Shown in pieces: positions 1,958 to 58,748 of a stretch of 64,000 bases of DNA. Positions within the stretch are counted from its first letter, which is position 1. Every line of letters starts with the position of its first letter. The stretch spans positions 31,276 through 95,275 of the forward strand of contig JAFGOA010000223.1 in the NCBI GenBank assembly GCA_016926735.1. The letters run 5' to 3'. The position numbers were made by a program, and so were the translations under genes. The stretch comes from Promethearchaeota archaeon (GTDB taxonomy: Archaea; Asgardarchaeota; Lokiarchaeia; Sigyniarchaeales; SOKP01). Below the pieces are notes generated by a model. That model was not told the origin of the DNA. It worked only from the letters and a program-made list of their open reading frames with translations, and did not search any database.

Positions 1958-2055
1958 TTTTTGAAAGTTTAAGATTTTTTTTTAGGTATTTTATTCTAAT
2001 TTGATATAATTTAAAGAGGGAAAAATAGGACCCGGAGCGGGAATTGAACCCGCGT

Positions 2056-2084
2056 TTCCTCAGCATAAGAATAATCTTAAACTT
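2056..2084 (-). other. tRNA-His intron 2 (29 nt, variable loop), BHB type
   Basis: 4-bp helix CCTT/GAGG (one T.G). 3-nt bulges AGA and AAA. 9-position inner helix AGTTTAAGA/TCTTATGCT with one T.T mismatch and loop TTAT. Excision leaves a 4-nt variable loop AGAC. Confidence 0.7.
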
Positions 2085-2114
2085 CTAAGGATTCACAGTC
2101 CCCAATACTAACCA

Positions 2115-2144
2115 TTATACAAATTACAGTAGAACTGGAATTTT
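2115..2144 (-). other. tRNA-His intron 1 (30 nt, D-loop, between nt 15 and 16), BHB type
   Basis: 4-bp helix GTAT/GTAT (2 A-U plus 2 G.U). 3-nt bulges AGA and AAT. Inner hairpin AAATT-C-CAG/CTG-T-AATTT. Excision gives the canonical D-loop AGTGGTTA. Confidence 0.75.
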
Positions 2145-2488
2145 CTATACAATCCGGGTCATAAATAACAATAATATTATCTAATTTATATTTCTAAAAA
2201 AATTTTAGCTTTTAATAAGCAATTTGATCAATGATATTATGATTTTTGTTTTAAAATAATTTAAAAAGATATAAATAAGAATTTTAGAGATTTTAGAATG
2301 TATTTAAGCTCTTGAAAAAATTAAAATTAAGGATAAGAAGTCTGGAAGATTTATTTCATTCTAAATACTAAACAATATGTTTTTAAGTTAATTATTTTAA
2401 ATATTATTAAGTCAAACTAATAAATTTTTAATTTTTATTCTGATTTAATCCTAATTAGAATATAGAAGATCTTGGAAATTTGATTGAT

Positions 2489-5417: not shown

Positions 5418-6695
5418 TTAAGAAATACTAACCGATTCTAATAAAAATTGTTTATACGAAGTTTGGAACATGTCCCTTATTCGCACAGGCTGAAACCAGT
5501 AGCCTCTATCGGATAGATCTTGAATAAAACCATCTCCGACTACTTTTCTGAGAATATTTAACGCTCCATTTACATCAGCATTAAGAATGTAATTCGAGCC
5601 TTTAAATATTCCCCGTTTTATCCTTTTACCAACATAATGTTGATGTTTCTGTATTGGTTCTAAATCTAATGAACTACATTTTGACGTGTAGGATTCATTG
5701 ACATCATGAACTTTAATTCCTACAAGGCGAGCTTTATAAGTTATCATTTGTTTAAGCTTTTGAATGGGGATATTCAAAAAATTTTGGTTATTTCGTTTGC
5801 CCATTCGAATATTTTGTTTTATATTATCTAATTTACCCAAACAAATGTGTCCTATCTGTTTTTCCAAACAATAACCGACAATGAATTGAGCTGTTTTATG
5901 CAAATAATCCTTTACAATTGAGTTTCTCCTTATTGTAATCTTATCGAGTCTATCAGTCCACTTTAGTTCTTGTTTATCCTTAATAGAAAAAAATCTTGCT
6001 TTCTGTTTATTCCATTGCCGATTAATTGATTTTAGAATTCTCCCTGAAATAATAATTGGTTTAGTATTCATATTCTCTGCTGTAGTGATTAAATTATTCA
6101 ATCCAAAATCGATTGATAAATATCTCGTGGTATCTAATTTTGACGTTTCTATTTCTTTTTTATATATTATTTCAATTTCATAAAATCCTTTTCGTGGCAA
6201 AATCCTTATCTGTTGATACTCTCCAAAACGCTTGTTTTTATACGTAGGAATTTTAATTTCAATAGGGTTTTCAAACTCAGGAAATAGTTCTTTAAAAAGG
6301 TGAGACATTGTAAGAACGATTTTATCCTGTTTAATCTTGCTATTCTGGTTAGTAAATATCAAAATGTTGTTACAACCTTTCTTGTATTTAGGTGGTCTCG
6401 GTCTTCCATTGAATCTTTTCCTATCTTTTTTCCACTCCTTTATAGCATTGAAGAAACTTTTCCAGTTTTTATCCAAGACTTTAAGAATTTGTTGAGAGGT
6501 TTGAGCTTTTAACAATTTATATTGGCTATATTTTTTCATTATGAAATCTAAATCGTTATATCGAAGCCAATTCTCTAGATGAAAGAAATCCTGTCGAATA
6601 TACCAATTAGCTTGATTATAAAGCTTCTTAGAAATTGAACAGAGCACATCTAAATGCTCAGTTCTCAGAGTCCTGAATTTATATACTAATTTCAT
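5418..6695 (-). CDS. tnpB: TnpB / OrfB_IS605-family protein (RNA-guided nuclease family), no tnpA partner
   Basis: 425 aa. RuvC-I-like SIDFGLNN. C-terminal YTSK...NADVNGALNILRK is typical of TnpB. The expected RuvC-II Glu and the CxxC..CxxC zinc finger are not evident (see findings). Confidence 0.8.
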   Translation of the reverse strand: MKLVYKFRTLRTEHLDVLCSISKKLYNQANWYIRQDFFHLENWLRYNDLDFIMKKYSQYKLLKAQTSQQILKVLDKNWKSFFNAIKEWKKDRKRFNGRPRPPKYKKGCNNILIFTNQNSKIKQDKIVLTMSHLFKELFPEFENPIEIKIPTYKNKRFGEYQQIRILPRKGFYEIEIIYKKEIETSKLDTTRYLSIDFGLNNLITTAENMNTKPIIISGRILKSINRQWNKQKARFFSIKDKQELKWTDRLDKITIRRNSIVKDYLHKTAQFIVGYCLEKQIGHICLGKLDNIKQNIRMGKRNNQNFLNIPIQKLKQMITYKARLVGIKVHDVNESYTSKCSSLDLEPIQKHQHYVGKRIKRGIFKGSNYILNADVNGALNILRKVVGDGFIQDLSDRGYWFQPVRIRDMFQTSYKQFLLESVSIS

Positions 6696-10763: not shown

Positions 10764-11608
10764 TTAAAGTCCTTTTGGACCGTTTTCATATATGCTATAT
10801 GCTTCATCAATAGACTTATTCTCATGAACTATAGCTCTTACTGCTTTAATCATGCCAATAGGGCTGTCACTTTGGAATATATTTCTTCCCATATTTGCGC
10901 CTATAATTATAAAAAATAGTTATAGTCTACGCCGACAGCTCCTTTATCAATAGCATTCCTTGCCATAATTAAAGCATCACGCTCCTCAATCTTCTTTCCA
11001 CCAGCTATTACAACCGGTACTGGAGCGATAGAAGTGACTTCGTCGAAGTTCTCACAATAATATGTTTTTACAAAAGTGGCACCTATTTCTGCTGCCATTC
11101 TACTTGCCATACCCAAATATCTTGCATCTCTAACCATTTCCCGTCCAACTGCTGTTACTGCTAAGACTGGAATACCATAATCTTGTCCCCAATTTACAAT
11201 CTTAGTTAAATTCATTAAAGATTGTTTTTCAAATTCACCACCTACAAAGATGGAACAGGTAATTGCTGAAACATTTAATCTTATCGCATCTTCAATTGTA
11301 ACATTTATTTCTTCATTTGAAAGTTCTTTTAACATACTTGCTCCGGCAGATACTCTTAGAACGATAGGTACATCAAAATCCGGTGAAACACAATTTCGAA
11401 GCATACCTCGTGTTAACATTAAAGCATCAGCATATTCAAAAAGGGGTTCTAACTTCTTAAAAGATTTTAACATTCCTGGGATATTGCCAAAATATTCATG
11501 AGTATGTATTAATTATACATATTTTCCATGATCGACAGCAAGCATGACGCAATGCCCAGATTTAGGTTTAATTATTCGGGATAATCTATTTTGCATTCCC
11601 CAATCCAT
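10764..11608 (-). CDS. class I aldolase of the DhnA family (fructose-bisphosphate aldolase / ADH synthase type), split into three exons by two BHB mini-introns
   Basis: Exons are 11608..11525, 11494..10927 and 10894..10764. The joined product is 260 aa. It has MLAVDHG-YFGNIPG, the Schiff-base Lys context ATFVKTYY, and GAVGVDMGRNIFQ. Unspliced, it contains an in-frame TAA and a frameshift. Confidence 0.8.
10895..10926 (-). other. aldolase intron 2 (32 nt), BHB type
   Basis: Helix GCGT(10932-10929)/GCGC(10900-10897). Bulges AGA and AAA. Inner helix CTATAA/TTATAG. Excision corrects the frame and gives GAVG-VDM-GRN spacing. Confidence 0.7.
11495..11524 (-). other. aldolase intron 1 (30 nt), BHB type
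   Basis: Helix CATG(11530-11527)/CATG(11500-11497). Bulges GAA and AAT. 9-position inner helix with one A.C mismatch and loop AATTA. Excision removes the in-frame TAA and gives AVDHG|YFGNIPG. Confidence 0.7.
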
Positions 11609-31119: not shown

Positions 31120-33123
31120 ATGAGTAAAAATAAATACGAATTTAAAGCAGAAATTAAAAAACTATTAGATATCTTGAGTAAATCCCTTTATCAACATAAA
31201 GAAGTTTTCCTCAGAGAATTGATTAGTAATTCTGTAGATGCACTTAAAAAAATTCATTTTTTATCATTAACAGATAAAAATATAGAAGATATTGAAGATA
31301 ATCTTAAAATTGAAATTATCATTGATTCTGATTCTAAAACAATTACTGTTAAAGATACAGGAATTGGAATGAATAAAGAGGAGCTTATTAATAATTTAGG
31401 AACTATTGCTGGAAGTGGTTCTCAAAAGTTTCTAGAACAACTTAATAATACCCAAAAAATAGATAATAAAAATGTGGATTTAGATGTTATAGGTCAATTT
31501 GGTGTTGGGTTTTATTCGATTTTCATGGTTGCTGATAAAGTTAAAGTAATTTCGAAATCATATATTAAAGAAGAGAACGCTTATGAATGGGAATCAGATG
31601 GAACTGGAGAATTTATTGTAAATAATAATGATAAATCTACAAGAGGAACAGATGTAATATTATTTCTTAAAGAAGATGAGAAAGAATACCTTGATAAATT
31701 TAGGATTGAATCAATAATAAAAAAATATTCTAATTATGTCTCTTTTCCAATTTACGTTTCTGAAATAAAAAAAGAAGCAGAAGAGGAAAAAGAGAAAAAA
31801 GTTGAGGAAGTGGAAGATAAAAAAAAACCTGAACCTATTAATGAATTAACTCCTTTATGGAAAAAAAATTCAAAAGATATTACTGAAGAGGAATATAAAA
31901 GCTTTTACCATTTTATTTCCAATAGATATGATAATTATTCACATGTTATTAATTATAGTATAGATGGCACTGTTCAATTTCGTTCTATACTTTTCATACC
32001 TGAATCTGATATCAATCAATTTATAAGACCTGATGATGAATATGGCTTAACTCTTTATTCTAAAAATGTAATGATTATGAAAAATTGCAGTGATTTAATT
32101 CCAAAATGGATGAGATTTATAAAAGGAGTTGTTGATTCAAATGATATTCCATTAAATATCAGTAGAGATACCATTCAAACTAATCGGGTAATGATGAAGA
32201 TAGAAAAATTACTAATTAAAAAAATATTAAGAGAACTTGATAATATCGCTGAAAATGAACCAGAGAAATATAAGAAATTATGGGAAAGTTTTTCTCCATA
32301 TATAAAAGAGGGTATTCTTTCTGACGCTTTTAGAACAGATAAACTTCTTACTTATCTTCGCTTTAATAGCTCAAAATCAAAAGAGGGCGAATATAGAAGT
32401 ATTGAAGATTATATAAAAGATATGCCTGAAACTCAAAAAGAACTATATTATTTAATTGGCGAAAATCTAAATACTTTGAAGTTATCACCTCATTTAGGAT
32501 ATTATAATGAAAATAATATGGAAGTTATATTATTAGATGAACCTATTGATAATTTCTTAATGATGAATGTACGTGAATATAAAAAAACAATACTGGAAGG
32601 TGAAAATGAAGAAATTAAATCATACACCTTTACTCCCATAGATGTAACAGAACCTACTAAGGAAGATAAAGAAGCATCAGAGGATGAGGGTAAAAAAGAT
32701 AAAACTGAAGAACTTATTCCTGAGAATATAAAGAAATTCTTTGAATATGTAAAATCTACTCTTGGAGAAAAGATTCTTGAGGTTAAACTGTCTGATCGTC
32801 TCTATCAAAATGTATGTAGATTGGCAAATCCTGCTGGTGGTATGACTTCAAGTATGCAAAGAGCTATGAGATATTGGACAAAAACAGAATATGGAAAAGA
32901 TTTTGAAATTCCGAGGAAAATTTTAGAGTTTAATAAGGATCATCCTATTTTTAATAAATTAATTGAACTTTATGAAAATGATCCAAAAGATGATAAAGTC
33001 ACATTAATTATAACTCAACTTTTTGAAAATTGCCTTTTAGCTGAAGGTGATCTACCAAATCCATCTCTTATGGTTCCAAGAATAAATCAATTAATTGAGT
33101 TATTATTAGTTGAAAAAAAATAG
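31120..33123 (+). CDS. htpG: Hsp90-family chaperone HtpG
   Basis: GHKL ATPase motifs (FLRELISNSVDALKK, DTGIGM, GQFGVGFYS), middle-domain NISRD, 667 aa. Confidence 0.9.
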   Translation: MSKNKYEFKAEIKKLLDILSKSLYQHKEVFLRELISNSVDALKKIHFLSLTDKNIEDIEDNLKIEIIIDSDSKTITVKDTGIGMNKEELINNLGTIAGSGSQKFLEQLNNTQKIDNKNVDLDVIGQFGVGFYSIFMVADKVKVISKSYIKEENAYEWESDGTGEFIVNNNDKSTRGTDVILFLKEDEKEYLDKFRIESIIKKYSNYVSFPIYVSEIKKEAEEEKEKKVEEVEDKKKPEPINELTPLWKKNSKDITEEEYKSFYHFISNRYDNYSHVINYSIDGTVQFRSILFIPESDINQFIRPDDEYGLTLYSKNVMIMKNCSDLIPKWMRFIKGVVDSNDIPLNISRDTIQTNRVMMKIEKLLIKKILRELDNIAENEPEKYKKLWESFSPYIKEGILSDAFRTDKLLTYLRFNSSKSKEGEYRSIEDYIKDMPETQKELYYLIGENLNTLKLSPHLGYYNENNMEVILLDEPIDNFLMMNVREYKKTILEGENEEIKSYTFTPIDVTEPTKEDKEASEDEGKKDKTEELIPENIKKFFEYVKSTLGEKILEVKLSDRLYQNVCRLANPAGGMTSSMQRAMRYWTKTEYGKDFEIPRKILEFNKDHPIFNKLIELYENDPKDDKVTLIITQLFENCLLAEGDLPNPSLMVPRINQLIELLLVEKK

Positions 33124-36178: not shown

Positions 36179-36712
36179 ATGGAAAAAAAAATCAGCAAAA
36201 CCTTAATAATGGGATTAAGAAATAGTGGTAAATCATCCATCTTGGAATATTTTCAAGGGATACGTAACCTAGTTTTATTCGGAAATATAAAACCAACAGT
36301 CCATATCGACAGAGTAATTTATCAAGCAGTTGATTATGAACATCTTATTTGGGATTTTGGAGGTCAAATCGATTATTTAAGTGATTACTTAGAACAATTC
36401 TATGAATATGCTTATGAAGCAGATGAGATAATATATGTGATTGATATTCAAGATCAAGAGAAATATAATCCTTCTATCAATTTTTTAAAAAAAATTATTA
36501 AACTTTTAGTTGATAAAGAACTATATATAGATATTAAAGTGTTTTTGCATAAATTTGACCCGGATTTGGATCATACACATCCAGAGATAAATGAAGAAGT
36601 AATTATTAATCTTCTAAAAGATGTTAAAAATATTTTTTCTGATAATATTAGCTACAGTATTTTTAAAACATCTCTTTATGTTGATTTTAAAAAATATCAA
36701 ATAATAGGATGA
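36179..36712 (+). CDS. small GTPase, Rag/Gtr-like (Ras superfamily), single G domain
   Basis: G1 GLRNSGKSS, G3 WDFGGQ, G4 HKFD (the HKxD variant typical of Rag/Gtr), G5 FKTSLY (compare the FRTSIW context of Rag). Confidence 0.7.
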   Translation: MEKKISKTLIMGLRNSGKSSILEYFQGIRNLVLFGNIKPTVHIDRVIYQAVDYEHLIWDFGGQIDYLSDYLEQFYEYAYEADEIIYVIDIQDQEKYNPSINFLKKIIKLLVDKELYIDIKVFLHKFDPDLDHTHPEINEEVIINLLKDVKNIFSDNISYSIFKTSLYVDFKKYQIIG

Positions 36713-40448: not shown

Positions 40449-42410
40449 ATGGAAAAAAAAGAAAACAAAGATATACGGAGTTTTGTTGTTGTCTGTCGAT
40501 GTGGTATTAACATTTCAGAAATAATCGATTGTCCTTCCCTAGTTGAATTCTCTAAAAAATTACCTACTGTTGTTGATGCTGATGAATATATTAGTATTTG
40601 TACTGAACCAGGTGCAGAATTTATAAAAAAAAAAATGACAGAAGCTAATGCCAATAGATTGATTGTTGTTGCTTGTACCCCTAAAACTCATGAACCTGTG
40701 TTTAAAACTGTTCTTGAGTCGATGAATTTAGATCCTTCTTATCTTGAATTTGCAAATATAAGAGAACATAGTAGTTTTGTTCATAGAAATGATATTGAAG
40801 GTGCTCAAAAAGTAGCTAAAGATATAGTTAAATCTGCTGTTGCAAGAGCATCCTTGTTAGAACCTATTAAAATAAAAGAAGTAGATATCACCAAAGAAGT
40901 TTTAATACTTGGTGGAGGTGTTTCAGGGTTAACTTGTGCAATAGATCTAGCTGAAGAAGGGTATATAGTACATCTAGTTGAAAAATCTCCTACAATTGGA
41001 GGTAAGATGGCTCAATTAGATAGAACGTTTCCAACTGATGATTGTTCAATCTGAATTTTAGGACCAGTAATGTTACAAGCAGCGAGAACCAAAGGACTAA
41101 ATATATACACATATAGTGAATTAGAGAACGCTAATGGATTTGTCGGGAATTTTGATGTAAAAATCAGAAAAAGAGCAAGATTTGTAACAAATGATTGTAA
41201 TGGATGTGGTGCTTGTGAACCTGTTTGCCCTGCAATTAGTTCAAATGAATTTAATGAAGGATTAAATCCAAGATCAGCAATTTATACAGCATTTGCTCAA
41301 GCAGTACCCTCTATCGCACAAATTGATATGACAAAATGTATAAAATGTGGTCTATGTCAAAAAGCATGTGAACTAAATGCTATAGATTTTGATCAAAAAG
41401 ATGAAATTCAAGAGATAAAAGTAGGAGCAATTGTCGTAGCTACTGGTTGGGATGAATATATACCTCCTATTGGAATGTTAGGATTTAATATATATCCTAA
41501 TGTTATTACTCAAATGAAATTAGAGAGAATTCTTGCCCCAAATGGTCCTACAATCGGACATTTAGCAAGACCTTCTGATGGAAAAACACCAAAAAAAATC
41601 TTATTCATTCAGTGTGTTGGTTCACGAGATTTAAATAAAAATACTTATTGTAGCTCAGGAGTATGTTGTATGATTTCAATAAAAAATACAAAGCTTATTA
41701 AACAACATTATCCTGATTGCGAAATAACCGTAGCATATATGGATATTCGTGCAGCAGGAAAAGATTATGAAGAGTATTTTACAGCATCTAGAAAGGAAGG
41801 GATAAGATATATCAGAACTAATATTAGTAAGATAGAAGAAAATCTTGAAAATCACAATTTAATCATTAAAATGCAAAATACTCTCAGAGATTCTAAGAAA
41901 TTTCAGGAAAATGAATTTGAAATGGTTGTACTTTCTTGTGCTATGACTCCCCCTAGAGGAATAAAAAAAATACAAACCTTACTAAAATTAGAGACAAGCA
42001 GAGATGGCTTTTTCAAAGAATTTCATGCAAGATTGAATCCAATTGATACAAAAATACCTGGAATTATTCTTGCAGGGGTTAGTCAAGGTCCTAAATCTAT
42101 AGCTGAATCGATATCTCAAGGAAGAGCCGCAGCCTCATCCGCAGCTCGATTAATGAGTAAGGATAAATTTAGAATTGCTCTAATTAGAGCAAAAGTAGAT
42201 AAAGAAAAATGTGCTAAATGCGGTTTATGTGAATTTAATTGCCCTTATAATGCTATTACTTTGAAAGATGATGGCGCAGATGTTGATGAAATTTTATGTA
42301 GAGGATGTGGTTCATGTTTAGCTAATTGTCCATCAGAAGCAATAAGTTTAAGATATTATAAAGAGAATCAGTATGAAAAACAAATAGATGCGATTCTTGA
42401 GAATACATAG
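40449..42410 (+). CDS. hdrA: heterodisulfide reductase subunit A (HdrA) selenoprotein; in-frame TGA = Sec
   Basis: Track ORFs 40449..41054 and 41070..42410 are in one frame, separated only by TGA 41052-41054. That TGA sits at FPTDDCSI-U-ILGP, where HdrA homologs have Cys or Sec. FAD motif GGGVSG and four ferredoxin-type Cys clusters. 653 codons. Confidence 0.85.
41052..41054 (+). other. UGA selenocysteine codon in hdrA
   Basis: Aligns with the conserved Cys of the DCSxC motif. Confidence 0.75.
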
Positions 42411-43088: not shown

Positions 43089-44399
43089 ATGTCAAATGTT
43101 CAGAAAGACAAAATCGAAAAATTATATGAAAAAGCAGAGCAACTTTATAAGGCAATTCAATATAAAAAGGCAGGTAAGACTTATTATCGCGTGGGAGAAA
43201 GCTTTTATGAAATAAAAGAATTTAAAATTGCTCAAGAAGCTTACTTTAAAGCAGCAGATTCTTTTATACAAAAAGAAGATCATGAAAAAGTCATAAAATC
43301 TCTAAGAAAATCTATAGATTCTTATTTAGAATTAGATGATATTGAAAATGCTCTTAAATTGTTGGAAAAATCAATTGATTATATAGAGAAATTAAATAAT
43401 CAAGATCTTAGAGAATCTTCTTATATCTTATTCTCATTCCTATCTTATTTATGTTATTATGCATTAGGTGTTCCAGATAAGGGGCTCAACGTTGTTAAAA
43501 GAGCTCAAAAGAGAGTAGATAAAGAATATTTCAAACAAAATTCTACAATCCACCTTATAACTAATTTTACTATCGCTTTAAGAGATAAAAAGAAAAAAAA
43601 AATTGATAAACTAACTGAAGATCTGCATCATATACAATTATATAATGGTGAGCTAAAATTAGTTAAAAATATTCTCTTAATTGCAACAATTAATGTTGAT
43701 AATACGCCTGAAATTAAATTAGATAAAGAAGATTACATAACAAATGAAATTATCCAAATGAATATGGATATTAATATTCAATCTATGTTAGAGACCGCAA
43801 AAAAAGATTTCTTTGATTTTAGAATAGATGAAATTACGATTAAAGGAATTAAAATAAATCTTACTGACAATTTATCAATTCAAACAAAACCTAGATTACC
43901 TTTAATTCTTGACTTGGAAAGTAATTTTAACTTTAATTTTTCTATAAAACCACAATTTATTACAGAGATGAGTACAATAGGTCCTATTAAAATTGAATTT
44001 TTGATAAATAATCTATACTCATTTTATATTGAAAATAGAAATGAATTTCCAATAAATCTTTCAGCTCCTCCAACTTCTCTTGAGATCTCCTTAAAAAGTT
44101 TGAAAACTCCTTTGATTGATAAGACTTTTCCACTAGAAATATTGATAGAAAATAAAAGTGAGGGAGATGCTTCTGATTTGAATATAAATATTAAATTTCC
44201 CGAACAAATTAGAGTTATTAGAGGTACAATTGAAAAACAGATATATTCTCTAAGATCTAATGAAACAATTAAATGGGAAATCAGCTCAAGACCTCTTGAA
44301 GCAGGAGATTTTGAGATTCAAATTGATTTTAGCTTTAAAGATCCTGATAATAATAATATAGAAGAAAAAATAACATTTCCATTAGCAATAAAATTGTAA
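43089..44399 (+). CDS. hypothetical protein, TPR-like helical N-terminus plus beta-rich (CARDB/DUF11-like) C-terminus
   Basis: 436 aa. Repeated helical hairpins (YKKAGKTYYRVGESFYE...AQEAYFKAADSF) are followed by a beta-sandwich-like tail. Confidence 0.45.
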   Translation: MSNVQKDKIEKLYEKAEQLYKAIQYKKAGKTYYRVGESFYEIKEFKIAQEAYFKAADSFIQKEDHEKVIKSLRKSIDSYLELDDIENALKLLEKSIDYIEKLNNQDLRESSYILFSFLSYLCYYALGVPDKGLNVVKRAQKRVDKEYFKQNSTIHLITNFTIALRDKKKKKIDKLTEDLHHIQLYNGELKLVKNILLIATINVDNTPEIKLDKEDYITNEIIQMNMDINIQSMLETAKKDFFDFRIDEITIKGIKINLTDNLSIQTKPRLPLILDLESNFNFNFSIKPQFITEMSTIGPIKIEFLINNLYSFYIENRNEFPINLSAPPTSLEISLKSLKTPLIDKTFPLEILIENKSEGDASDLNINIKFPEQIRVIRGTIEKQIYSLRSNETIKWEISSRPLEAGDFEIQIDFSFKDPDNNNIEEKITFPLAIKL

Positions 44400-44544: not shown

Positions 44545-46113
44545 ATGAGATTAATAGTAAAAAAAATAAATTTTGAAACTGGTAATATGAAAGACGTTGT
44601 GCTTAACCATAATGATGCTGAAAAAATAGGACAAAAAGTTGGAGAACGTGTTATTATTCAAAATATAAATACTAAAAACTTAAGTGAAAAATATTGGGTT
44701 GCTATATTAAAAATTTCATATTCAGATTCTATAGTAGCTCCAGGAGAAATAGGAATTTTTGCTGACACATTTAAAGATATAAAAAATTTAAAAGAAAATT
44801 CCAAAGTCTCAGTTTTAGCTGCTGAAGCACCTACATCATATAAAAATATCCAAAAAAAAATTAAAGGTTTTAAACTTAATTCTGATGAAATTCATAGTAT
44901 TATAAAGGATGCAGTATCTGGGAAATTGTCACAAATAGAAATTGCATCATTTATTACTGGTATTTCTATTAATAATATGGATTCTGATGAAATGACAGCA
45001 TTAACATTAGCAGAAGGTAACAGTGGAAGAAAATTTGATTTTGGTCCGGAAGTCTATGACAAACATAGTACATAAAATTGCACTCTGTAATTTTAGCTAA
45101 AAGGTGGAGTTCCGGGTAATAAAGTAACACTTATAATCGTTCCAATAATTGCAGCTGCAGGATTAATTATTCCGAAAACAAGTACTCGTGCTATAACATC
45201 TCCTTCAGGTACAGCCGATTCAATGGAGGTTCTAGCGCCAATCTCTTTTAATTCAGAAGAAGTAAAAGAATTTATCTCAAAAAGAGGAGCATGTATTATT
45301 TGGGGAGGTGCTTTAGATATAGCACCTGCAGATAATGTTTTTATAGAAGTTGAACGTCCACTTCATTTTGATCCTATGGGTTTAATGATACCTTCAATTT
45401 TAGCTAAAAAACTTAGTATGGGTGTAAAAAACCTAGTATTAGATGTACCTATTGGTAAAGGAACAAAATTTCCTACACTTAAAGATGGACAAAATTTTGC
45501 TCTCATATTCAATCAAATTGCCAAAAATATTGGTATTCATAGTGAGTGTGCTTTAACCTTAGCTCATCAACCTGTGGGTCACTGTGTTGGACCGGCAATT
45601 GAAGCTCAAGAAGCAATTTCTCTTCTGAGGGACTATAAAGTAGGACCTAATTCTTTAATAGAAAAATCAACTTCATTAGCAGGTATTCTTTTAGAGATGG
45701 CAGGAAAAGCTAAAAATGGAGAAGGACAATTATTAGCTAAAGATATCTTAAAATCAGGGAAAGCTTATACAAAAATGAAAGAAATTATTGAAATGCAAGG
45801 TGGTAATCCTAATATTTTGCCAGAAGATATAGAATTAGGTCCATATAAACTTGATATCTATGCTCAAAAATCAGGTCATATCACTCAAGTGGATAATGCT
45901 TTAATTAATCAAATTGCAAAAGCAGCAGGCTGCCCCTATTCTAAAACTTCAGGAGTTAGAATTTATAAAAAACAAGGTGCTAAAATAAATAAAGGTGATA
46001 TTATTTTTACAATCTATTCTAATACTGAAAATAAGTTAAAAAGAGCTGAAAAATTATACAATAGTTCTGGAGGGCCTATTATATTAGGAGGAATGCTCAT
46101 AGAACGTATTTAA
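44545..46113 (+). CDS. AMP phosphorylase (archaeal DeoA-type, thymidine phosphorylase family) interrupted by one 30-nt BHB intron
   Basis: Exons 44545..45071 and 45102..46113 give 512 aa. The spliced product has [49 protein letters not shown]. The N-terminal extension is typical of AMP phosphorylase. Confidence 0.85.
45072..45101 (+). other. AMP phosphorylase intron (30 nt), BHB type
   Basis: Helix TAGT/GCTA, bulges ACA and AAA, inner 7-bp helix TAAAATT/AATTTTA. The insert carries three in-frame stop codons. Confidence 0.75.
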
Positions 46114-58019: not shown

Positions 58020-58040
58020 AATTTTTAATTTAATTATTGA

Positions 58041-58748
58041 TTAAAGGTTCAATTCTTTAACGATTTCTTCTATTCCCTCATTATTTTTAGCGCTTGTTAG
58101 AATCACTTTAATATTTGGATTTATCTCTTTAGCATCATTGACCATTTTATCTAGATCTGTTCCTAATCTTTCTTTCAGATCGATTTTATTTATGATTGCT
58201 ATCTCTGACATTCTAAATAATAACGGATGTTTTTCTATAACCCATTCACCTTCAGTAGTGGAAACTATAATAATTCGTTTATCCATTCCCAATTGAAATT
58301 CAGCTGGGCAAATTAGATTTCCTACATTTTCTATAAAAATAAGATTGTATTTTTTTAGGTCGATATTTTTCACAATCTTAAGAATATAATATGCATTTAG
58401 AGCACATTCTCTTCCTGTATTTATTTGAATAGTGTCAACATTTTTTTTTTGAATACGATCAGCATCCACTCGAGTTGTTATATCTCCACATATAACCAAA
58501 ATTTTATATTTCTGAGAAAGTATATCTGTTATTTTTTCTAAAATTGCTGTTTTTCCAGCACCGATTGCTCCAACAATATCAAATGATTTTATATTGTGTT
58601 CATGAAGCTTATTATTGATTAATTCCGCAATAGAATCATTATTTTTTTCCACTTCTTTTTGTGTTTGAATGATAATTTGACGATTGTGTTCTTGTGCTAA
58701 TTTTCTACTTTCTAATTCCATGACTCTTTCGTATTCTTGATCTTTCAT
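58041..58748 (-). CDS. hypB: hydrogenase nickel-incorporation GTPase HypB
   Basis: GAIGAGKT, ENVGNLICPA, NKIDL. Confidence 0.9.
   Translation of the reverse strand: MKDQEYERVMELESRKLAQEHNRQIIIQTQKEVEKNNDSIAELINNKLHEHNIKSFDIVGAIGAGKTAILEKITDILSQKYKILVICGDITTRVDADRIQKKNVDTIQINTGRECALNAYYILKIVKNIDLKKYNLIFIENVGNLICPAEFQLGMDKRIIIVSTTEGEWVIEKHPLLFRMSEIAIINKIDLKERLGTDLDKMVNDAKEINPNIKVILTSAKNNEGIEEIVKELNL

Follow-up and report, generated by a model that had tools for sequence, protein, structure and literature searches.

A predicted 30-nt bulge-helix-bulge intron within the AMP phosphorylase gene of a Lokiarchaeial genome

Introduction

We begin by considering an archaeal AMP phosphorylase gene whose phosphate-binding motif is split by ten codons, three of them stops, and by asking how a complete enzyme could be made from it. 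The gene lies at 44545..46113 (+) of the window, by which we mean the whole 64,000-nt stretch of the Lokiarchaeial contig JAFGOA010000223.1 under analysis (positions 31,276 to 95,275, forward strand; G+C content 26.8%). A first-pass annotation of this DNA had proposed that the ten codons are an intron of the bulge-helix-bulge (BHB) type, cut out within the two bulges by the endonuclease that splices tRNAs. From the comparison of related genes given here, it is very probable that the 30 nt at 45072..45101 are a BHB-type intron that is removed from the mRNA.

An AMP phosphorylase gene interrupted by 30 nt

The sequence at 45060..45105 (+) reads CAT AGT ACA TAA AAT TGC ACT CTG TAA TTT TAG CTA AAA GGT GGA, in which codons 1, 6 and 8 of the insert are in-frame stops, and an uninterrupted reading across it gives DKHST, stop, NCTL, stop, F, stop, LKGGVPGNK. 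The two open reading frames (ORFs) concerned, 44545..45075 and 45223..46113, are in the same frame. The gene is divided as follows, where HBh' denotes a central helix (H), a bulge (B) and an inner hairpin (h').

44545..46113, + strand: whole AMP phosphorylase gene, including the 30-nt insert behind DKHST
44545..45071, + strand: exon 1 (MRLIVKK...EVYDKHS and the first 2 nt of the Thr codon), placed by the ORF and by the TIGR03327 and 4ga5 alignments
45072..45101, + strand: predicted HBh' BHB-type intron of 30 nt, ATAAAATTGCACTCTGTAATTTTAGCTAAA, placed by its stops, by 24 other loci with an insert at the same site and by a covariance model
45102..46113, + strand: exon 2 (last nt of the Thr codon, GGVPGNK...LIERI and the stop), placed by alignments of the spliced product and by selection on its codons

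Deleting 45072..45101 leaves a protein of 512 amino acids (aa), and deleting 45073..45102 gives an identical product. This spliced product matches the AMP phosphorylase model TIGR03327 with 578.6 bits (cut-off 535) over profile positions 2-500 of 500, and it aligns with the T. kodakarensis (Thermococcus kodakarensis) AMP phosphorylase 4ga5 at E 3e-131, gapless across HS(T/I)GGVPGNK, with the 4ga5 segment DVHSIGGVPGNK opposite the restored phosphate-loop motif. The first-pass annotation had read the two ORFs as one archaeal AMP phosphorylase, the insert as ten codons with three stops, and the removal of 45072..45101 as restoring both frame and motif; the shared frame, the codons themselves, the two matches and the gapless alignment bear out this reading. 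The exon 1 ORF is 100% identical to an N-terminal fragment held by NCBI as 'hypothetical protein JXA99_16860 [Candidatus Lokiarchaeota archaeon]'.

Distribution of the insert among relatives

The next question is "does the insert exist in the same gene of other organisms?" The loci that we compare come from species-representative genomes, from a protein search with the N-terminal ORF, from a metagenome scan (62 further loci) and from one further look-up. An insert at the same site is found in 25 independent loci of Lokiarchaeial (Promethearchaeota) genomes and metagenomes, and is absent from the loci of 45 relatives. It is 30 nt long in 20 loci and 29 nt in 5, always lies between the Thr codon and GGN, and contains at least one stop in each of the 25. 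The three nearest relatives among the species-representative genomes (95, 85 and 80% protein identity) likewise have 30 additional nt in the same place, and in Promethearchaeota-labelled relatives at 70-74% identity the motif is uninterrupted.

An alignment of orthologs had been proposed as a check on whether the 30 nt are absent elsewhere, and it separates 45 loci without the insert from 25 with it; in the former the phosphate-binding motif is contiguous, as had been asserted for the family. The ten codons are not sense codons in the orthologs, where stops occur in 25/25 inserts and five inserts are 29 nt long, and the presence of the insert in 25 independent assemblies from different studies speaks against an assembly artefact. 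With the N-terminal ORF as the query, 79 proteins are retrieved, nearly all of them 173-183 aa long and ending in DKHST plus 0-8 unrelated residues; one of these truncated proteins belongs to the founding Lokiarchaeote assembly, that of Lokiarchaeum sp. GC14_75.

Some candidates for a different arrangement were rejected. There is no second intron site in P0011 (L077:1170-1275) or P0016 (L078:1380-1477), which are on short metagenome contigs that diverge after FGPEVY and then end; the divergence point precedes the usual intron site by five codons, and these may be chimeras or may carry a larger insertion elsewhere. In P0078 (Promethearchaeota, L075:3150-3260) the AMP phosphorylase gene is broken not by an intron but by a 43-nt tandem duplication (with GGATCCTGTTGGATTAATGATTCCCTCAATTTTAGC present twice), which is either an assembly artefact or a genuine frameshifting duplication. 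L071, a further candidate for a second intron site, is a chimeric sequence.

RNA structure of the insert

We turn our attention to the RNA, whose predicted elements are listed here.

45066..45069, + strand: 5' strand of the central helix H, TAGT, exonic (last base of the His codon and the Ser codon), paired with 45096..45099
45070..45072, + strand: 5' bulge B1 (ACA), unpaired in the consensus, predicted cut 45071/45072
45073..45095, + strand: inner hairpin h', TAAAATTGCA / loop CTC / TGTAATTTTA, 9 consensus pairs
45096..45099, + strand: 3' strand of the central helix H, GCTA, intronic, placed by consensus and covariation
45100..45102, + strand: 3' "bulge" B2 (AAA), predicted cut 45101/45102, without an outer helix after it

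Using 22 distinct insert sequences aligned with their flanks, RNAalifold arrives de novo at a consensus of a 4-bp helix, a 3-nt bulge and a 9-bp hairpin with a 5-nt loop, which is the tRNA-endonuclease-substrate layout that the first-pass annotation had claimed. The same consensus fold is obtained in 51-nt and 123-nt contexts, with no other conserved pairing. The central helix, the bulges and the pairings stand at the coordinates first given for them; the inner helix has to be redrawn, since in the window it is 10 bp long (45073-82 / 45086-95, one G.U) with a 3-nt loop, and not 7 bp with a 9-nt loop.

Standard pairs occupy 95.1% of the cells, and 10 of the 13 pairs (33 cells) are changed on both sides. 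The observed pairing and compensation are reached by 0/500 column shuffles, and a control in which the partners are slid by 1-3 columns gives only 29-46% pairing. Compensatory changes are seen in 8 of the 9 consensus pairs of h', and the sequence of the hairpin loop varies freely among orthologs. The pair 45066/45099, formed between the His wobble base of the exon and a base of the intron, also covaries (U-A 13, C-G 7, U.G 1).

The cutting rule that we test places the cuts 2 nt into each 3-nt bulge flanking the 4-bp central helix. Cuts inside the bulges, as originally suggested, restore the phosphate-loop motif in 24 of the 25 loci, including the 29-nt variants and the locus L058, where the entire motif is displaced by 1 nt (AGUA/UACU, bulges CAA and AAG) and the mRNA junction is the same. 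Judged from the aligned sequences, a 4-bp H with a bulge 3' of each H strand and cuts 2 nt in is the geometry of a splicing-endonuclease substrate. A covariance model of the AMP phosphorylase introns recovers this intron at 51 bits (E 2.7e-9) as its sole significant match in the window; it finds no second copy there and does not match the tRNA and LsrF introns described below, so that these introns are not copies of one repeated family.

A competing hairpin, CUGUAAUUUU..AAAAGGUGGAG at 45084..45121 (+), takes up bases from the 3' half of the intron and from the beginning of exon 2. It is the minimum-free-energy structure of the single window sequence and is not conserved in orthologs, and its formation might delay or modulate adoption of the fold that can be spliced.

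Selection on both exons

Is the part of the gene behind the insert still in use? The C-terminal 336 codons are intact (tblastn) in each complete intron-bearing locus. With a 29-nt insert the two halves of the gene no longer share one frame, and the shifted frame of the C-terminal half is open for 336 codons, by which any read-through model is excluded. For the 18 complete intron-bearing AMP phosphorylase genes used to estimate selection, the median proportion of synonymous differences (pS) is 0.68 and the median ratio of nonsynonymous to synonymous substitution (dN/dS) is 0.08; the intact C-terminal halves and the low dN/dS together exclude a pseudogene. In the 40 codons from the insert to the first downstream ATG, dN/dS is 0.047, which excludes separate initiation at that ATG. 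The codons next to the insert are constrained as well: for Ser, 25/25 intron-bearing loci use AGY versus 23/45 intron-less ones (p 6e-6), and for Thr, 24/25 use ACA versus 18/45 (p 2e-6). In the sequences compared, this exon codon constraint is confined to intron-bearing genes.

The same cutting rule elsewhere in the window

If the host can excise such an insert from one RNA, are there others like it? Two genes on the reverse strand provide candidates, the first of which encodes a tRNA.

2028..2160, - strand: tRNA-His(GUG) gene with two non-canonical introns, placed by an Rfam match and by ARAGORN after intron removal
2144..2115, - strand: tRNA-His intron in the D-arm, 30 nt, HBh', B1 AGA (B2 is AAT/AAA across the two introns)
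2084..2056, - strand: tRNA-His intron in the variable region, 29 nt, HBh', B1 AGA (B2 as above)

The Rfam tRNA match at 2037..2120 (-) contains a 30-nt insertion and is barely above threshold (29.4 bits vs 29), and ARAGORN calls no tRNA in the unspliced window. When both introns are removed by the cutting rule, ARAGORN calls a canonical 73-nt tRNA-His(GUG). From this correct restoration it follows that the organism processes non-canonical introns of exactly such architecture and size.

The second gene is protein-coding. A Pfam survey revealed a DeoC/LacD-family ORF without its N-terminus, the missing ends of which are provided by adjoining small ORFs.

10764..11608, - strand: LsrF-like (DhnA-type) aldolase/thiolase gene, exons 11608..11525, 11494..10927 and 10894..10764, placed by NF006081, 3gkf and orthologs
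11495..11524, - strand: predicted mRNA intron, 30 nt, H CATG/CATG, B1 GAA, B2 AAT, joining LAVDHG to YFGNIPG
10895..10926, - strand: predicted mRNA intron, 32 nt, H GCGT/GCGC, B1 AGA, B2 AAA, joining GAVGVD to MGRNIFQ

The inner hairpin of the 30-nt intron is AATATGTAT/ATACATACT, with one mismatch, and that of the 32-nt intron is CTATAA../..TTATAG; removal of the latter corrects a frame shift. The spliced product of 260 aa reaches 387 bits on the LsrF thiolase model NF006081 (cut-off 297) and aligns with E. coli LsrF 3gkf at E 3e-87, gapless at both junctions. It is 80-88% identical over its full length to 120 intact Promethearchaeota orthologs, which read LAVDHGYFGN[IV]PG at the first junction and, in 85/120, GAVGVDMGRNIFQ at the second, both as predicted. 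The cutting rule is thus correct at five junctions in the window (AMP phosphorylase, two in tRNA-His and two in the LsrF-like gene).

A first scan of the window for BHB motifs that join ORFs required at least 60 codons on each side; it returned only the AMP phosphorylase intron together with many chance bridges between neighbouring genes, and missed the LsrF introns because of their short outer exons. Relaxed scans recovered all three mRNA introns, along with hundreds of false positives in this AT-rich DNA. Given these false positives and a decoy-offset control that was not clean, the structure rule alone is unusable for discovery without homology. The most promising extra candidate of the first scan, 58023..58046 (-), with TTGA ACC TTTAAT..ATTAAA TTAA AAA, was rejected: it lies between the unrelated hypB and hexapeptide-repeat genes; its removal would join the two ORFs in frame, and the hairpin is probably a terminator or a chance one. 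Candidates in L005/L057 and in L032 were also discarded, their upstream "exons" being junk.

Alternative explanations

There are other ways in which an enzyme might be obtained from this gene, or in which the insert might arise. Translational bypassing of the phage T4 gene 60 type would have the ribosome take off at the Thr/Ser codon, skip 29-30 nt and restart at GGU. A stop directly follows the last sense codon in the window, a stable hairpin begins there, and the skip is similar in size to known hops; yet there is no matching landing codon, the bases before GGU being AAA, AAU, AUU or UAA and never ACN or AGY, and in most orthologs the first intron codon is sense (AAA, GAA, AGA, CAG), which leaves no takeoff stop. 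Nor would a hopping ribosome have any use for covariation between the His wobble base and an intron base that lies 4 nt ahead of the 3' boundary, which is a pair of the central BHB helix, and the same architecture is excised from a tRNA, which is never translated; we regard bypassing as very improbable. Alternatively, the 30 nt could be removed from the RNA by machinery other than the tRNA-splicing endonuclease (EndA) and the RtcB ligase, be it another structure-specific endonuclease with a ligase or a ribozyme-like reaction, as the missing canonical outer helix and the lack of any Rfam family matching the insert might suggest. The EndA-substrate geometry is, however, exact, five junctions in the window are predicted correctly (two belonging to a tRNA), heterotetrameric EndA is documented to accept relaxed HBh' motifs (PMC5829648; PMC2738675), and 30 nt are far too few for group I/II ribozymes. 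Nothing calls for a different RNA-processing enzyme, and we consider its involvement improbable. A self-splicing group I/II intron or an intein was rejected, the insert being only 29-30 nt long, without an Rfam match, and containing stops.

It is also conceivable that the gene is truly split, with an N-terminal protein of 176 aa assembling with a separately initiated C-terminal protein and the insert serving as a spacer. Gene callers do annotate two proteins in many genomes, and PF02885, the N-terminal domain, folds as a unit by itself, but the break falls within the contiguous phosphate-binding loop HSTGG and not between domains. The boundary has no start codon or ribosome-binding site, the first in-frame ATG is 40 codons downstream, and those 40 codons are themselves under selection (dN/dS 0.047). 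A spacer, moreover, needs neither a covarying BHB-like structure that involves the exon nor a fixed length of 29-30 nt, and a split gene is in our view hardly credible. The three in-frame stops and the NCBI label of hypothetical protein would be expected of a pseudogene or of an assembly or sequencing artefact; this reading is excluded by the recurrence of the insert in 25 independent assemblies of different studies, by strong purifying selection on both halves at a pS of about 0.68, and by the structural constraint under which the insert evolves.

A BHB-type intron has points against it too. The outer helix h of the canonical hBHBh' motif is not found in the 123-nt context and the 3' site is not a closed bulge, for which reason the motif is classed as relaxed HBh'. 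Folding of the single sequence (45050..45120) gives z = -0.96, no better than shuffles, and the minimum-free-energy structure is the competing hairpin described above; the significance of the structure comes from the comparative evidence and not from single-sequence thermodynamics. The two LsrF introns draw their support from a single sequence and homology. The 64-kb window contains no EndA or RtcB gene, and the presence of these enzymes in the host rests on the literature for the phylum. Finally, among the full-length entries of the protein collection, none exceeds 74% identity to the spliced window product. Weighing these points together with the covariation, the selection and the distribution of the insert, we infer from comparison that the AMP phosphorylase mRNA is very probably spliced.

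Gain, loss and polymorphism

How stable is the intron at its site? When the C-terminal halves are placed on a neighbour-joining tree, genes with the intron are mixed with genes that lack it, and several close sister pairs consist of one of each. One such comparison is between L037, with the intron, and L076, a metagenome scaffold without it, which share 99.2% DNA identity. At the site, L037:2831-2868 reads CAT AGT ACA[30 nt]GGT GGC GTT CCA GGC and L076:671-692 reads CAT TCA ACA GGA GGG GTT CCA GGT, and 7 of the 16 differences between the two lie within 30 nt of the intron site (p 6e-7). That L076 is a spliced cDNA was rejected, a metagenome scaffold being a DNA allele. A Ser codon cannot pass from AGT to TCA through synonymous changes of one base at a time, and a short recombination tract therefore probably accompanied the gain or loss of the intron. 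The cluster of differences, as it appears from the two sequences, resembles a co-conversion tract left by recombinational gain or loss, and such turnover fits, by analogy, the gain-and-loss pattern of cbf5 (PMC2738675).

The intron appears to be old in Lokiarchaeia, to have been retained in many lineages, and to have undergone repeated precise loss or gain by recombination. Its location in the most conserved motif of the gene and its recombinational turnover favour a tolerated selfish or neutral element over a regulatory role.

Proposed mechanism

Combining these results, we propose the following course of events. In the pre-mRNA, UAGU (the last His base and the Ser codon) would pair with GCUA of the intron into the 4-bp central helix, leaving the Thr codon ACA as the 3-nt 5' bulge, with the 10-bp intron hairpin stacked on the other side; the AAA after the central helix would contain the 3' splice site. 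EndA would then cut each bulge 2 nt in, at 45071/45072 and 45101/45102. The endonuclease would be of the Asgard heterotetrameric (alpha-beta)2 type, with an L1 loop, and tolerant of relaxed motifs. Asgard archaea have such an (alpha-beta)2 EndA, whose L1 loop accompanies a broad substrate range (PMC5829648); the substrates documented for heterotetrameric EndA include relaxed HBh' motifs (PMC5829648; PMC2738675), and hetero-oligomeric endonucleases cleave relaxed motifs outside the tRNA context (PMC2738675). The tRNA-His introns in the window lend indirect support to a host endonuclease that is able to cut relaxed motifs.

An RtcB-type ligase would join ...AGU AC to A GGU GGA..., and would probably circularise the intron too, as is normal when RtcB ligates BHB introns. 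The spliced mRNA would have the phosphate-loop motif restored and would encode the 512-aa enzyme, the unspliced mRNA would yield the 176-aa fragment only, and active enzyme would come from the spliced mRNA alone. In terms of RNA ends, the spliced AMP phosphorylase junction would be GTCTATGACAAACATAGTAC joined to AGGTGGAGTTCCGGGTAATAA, the unspliced boundaries would read ...ATAGTACATAAAATTG... and ...TAGCTAAAAGGTGG..., and the 30-nt circular intron would close as ...TTTTAGCTAAA joined to ATAAAATTGC.... For the LsrF-like mRNA, the spliced junctions would be GTCGATCATGGA joined to TATTTTGGCAAT and CTGTCGGCGTAG joined to ATATGGGAAGAA.

Other features of the window

Several further features were noted. 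The HdrA-like (heterodisulfide reductase subunit A) gene at 40449..42410 (+) contains an in-frame TGA at 41052..41054, at which ORF lists halve the gene; this TGA aligns with the second Cys of the DCSIC motif in HdrA 5odc and, on the alignment, is probably a selenocysteine codon. A TnpB-like protein, a mobile-element nuclease with OrfB_IS605 and Cas12f1-like TNB domains, is encoded at 5418..6695 (-). A small GTPase of the Gtr1/RagA/Arf family is found at 36179..36712 (+), and the protein encoded at 43089..44399 (+) has a weak N-terminal likeness to SNAP (soluble NSF attachment protein); both belong to the eukaryote-signature type of gene that an Asgard genome is expected to contain.

Relation to known systems and significance

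For more than 20 years, cbf5 of Crenarchaeota, the gene of a pseudouridine synthase, whose pre-mRNA intron was reportedly described by Watanabe and co-workers in 2002, has stood alone as an archaeal gene with an accepted BHB intron in its coding sequence. Its introns measure 16-44 bp and have relaxed motifs (Yokobori et al. 2009, PMC2738675), and the Lokiarchaeial introns, at 29-32 nt, are likewise very short insertions within coding sequence, with a relaxed BHB motif, a hetero-oligomeric splicing endonuclease (presumed for the Lokiarchaeial host), and a patchy presence among close relatives that implies repeated gain and loss of an element too small for a homing enzyme. They differ in their hosts, which are genes for AMP phosphorylase and an LsrF-like aldolase, in their lineage (Lokiarchaeia of the Asgard group, not Crenarchaeota), in that 64 kb contain more than one such gene, and in the plus/minus polymorphism at 99.2% identity with a conversion tract. 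The splicing of cbf5 was shown experimentally, whereas that of the Lokiarchaeial genes is predicted by comparison.

Relaxed HBh' and hBH motifs are also said to occur in non-canonical archaeal tRNA introns, in work attributed to Marck and Grosjean in 2003 and to Fujishima and Kanai. With these the mRNA insert has its architecture, cut positions and size class in common (30/29 nt, B1 AGA and B2 AAN in the tRNA-His of the window), and presumably its enzymes, EndA and RtcB; the mRNA substrate, by contrast, has no tRNA body, and the exonic half of its helix consists of codons, which constrains synonymous sites. In Haloferax volcanii, the mRNA of HVO_1309 (PMC7714728) is also processed by the tRNA-splicing endonuclease, but its intron is in the 5' untranslated region (UTR), where no reading frame is broken, and it has a canonical euryarchaeal BHB motif cut by an alpha'2 enzyme. 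A more distant parallel is HAC1/XBP1, spliced by IRE1 with a tRNA ligase or RtcB, where a short intron of the coding sequence (26 nt in XBP1) is removed independently of the spliceosome by cuts in small stem-loops followed by RtcB-type ligation, and where splicing alters the translated product. The endonuclease (IRE1), the RNA motif and the regulation by endoplasmic reticulum stress are different in that case, and we claim no homology.

The first-pass annotation had held that BHB introns in mRNAs are known essentially only from cbf5, which is essentially right; the literature adds the one Haloferax 5'-UTR case. In the literature searched, papers of 2018-2026 on archaeal splicing endonucleases cite only these two for mRNAs, and a structural paper of 2025 on splicing endonucleases still names cbf5 alone. 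In a literature coverage that is incomplete, no report of BHB introns in mRNAs of Asgard archaea or Lokiarchaeota, or of an intron in AMP phosphorylase, was found. Within that coverage, the intron is the first such mRNA intron in Asgard archaea; it is widespread, and its covariation support is unusually strong.

The same mechanism as in cbf5 most likely acts on at least two metabolic genes in Lokiarchaeia, an Asgard group near the origin of eukaryotes, and one of the introns is kept under structural selection in dozens of lineages, that of Lokiarchaeum GC14_75 among them. Gene callers split the gene, with the result that AMP phosphorylase is listed as a "hypothetical protein" of 176-181 aa in many metagenome-assembled Asgard genomes, and this split annotation biases metabolic reconstructions. 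In the window, three predicted mRNA introns occur in 2 of about 60 genes, in addition to the doubly interrupted tRNA. We therefore put forward a broader proposition, which in our judgement could equally well hold or fail: Lokiarchaeial genomes may carry a population of mobile BHB mini-introns of 29-32 nt in protein-coding genes, which spread and vanish by recombination with short co-conversion tracts and are removed by the tRNA-splicing machinery. If it is true, hundreds of "truncated" or "hypothetical" Asgard proteins would be mis-annotated halves of intact genes, and enzyme-catalysed splicing of coding mRNAs would be routine in the archaeal relatives of eukaryotes.

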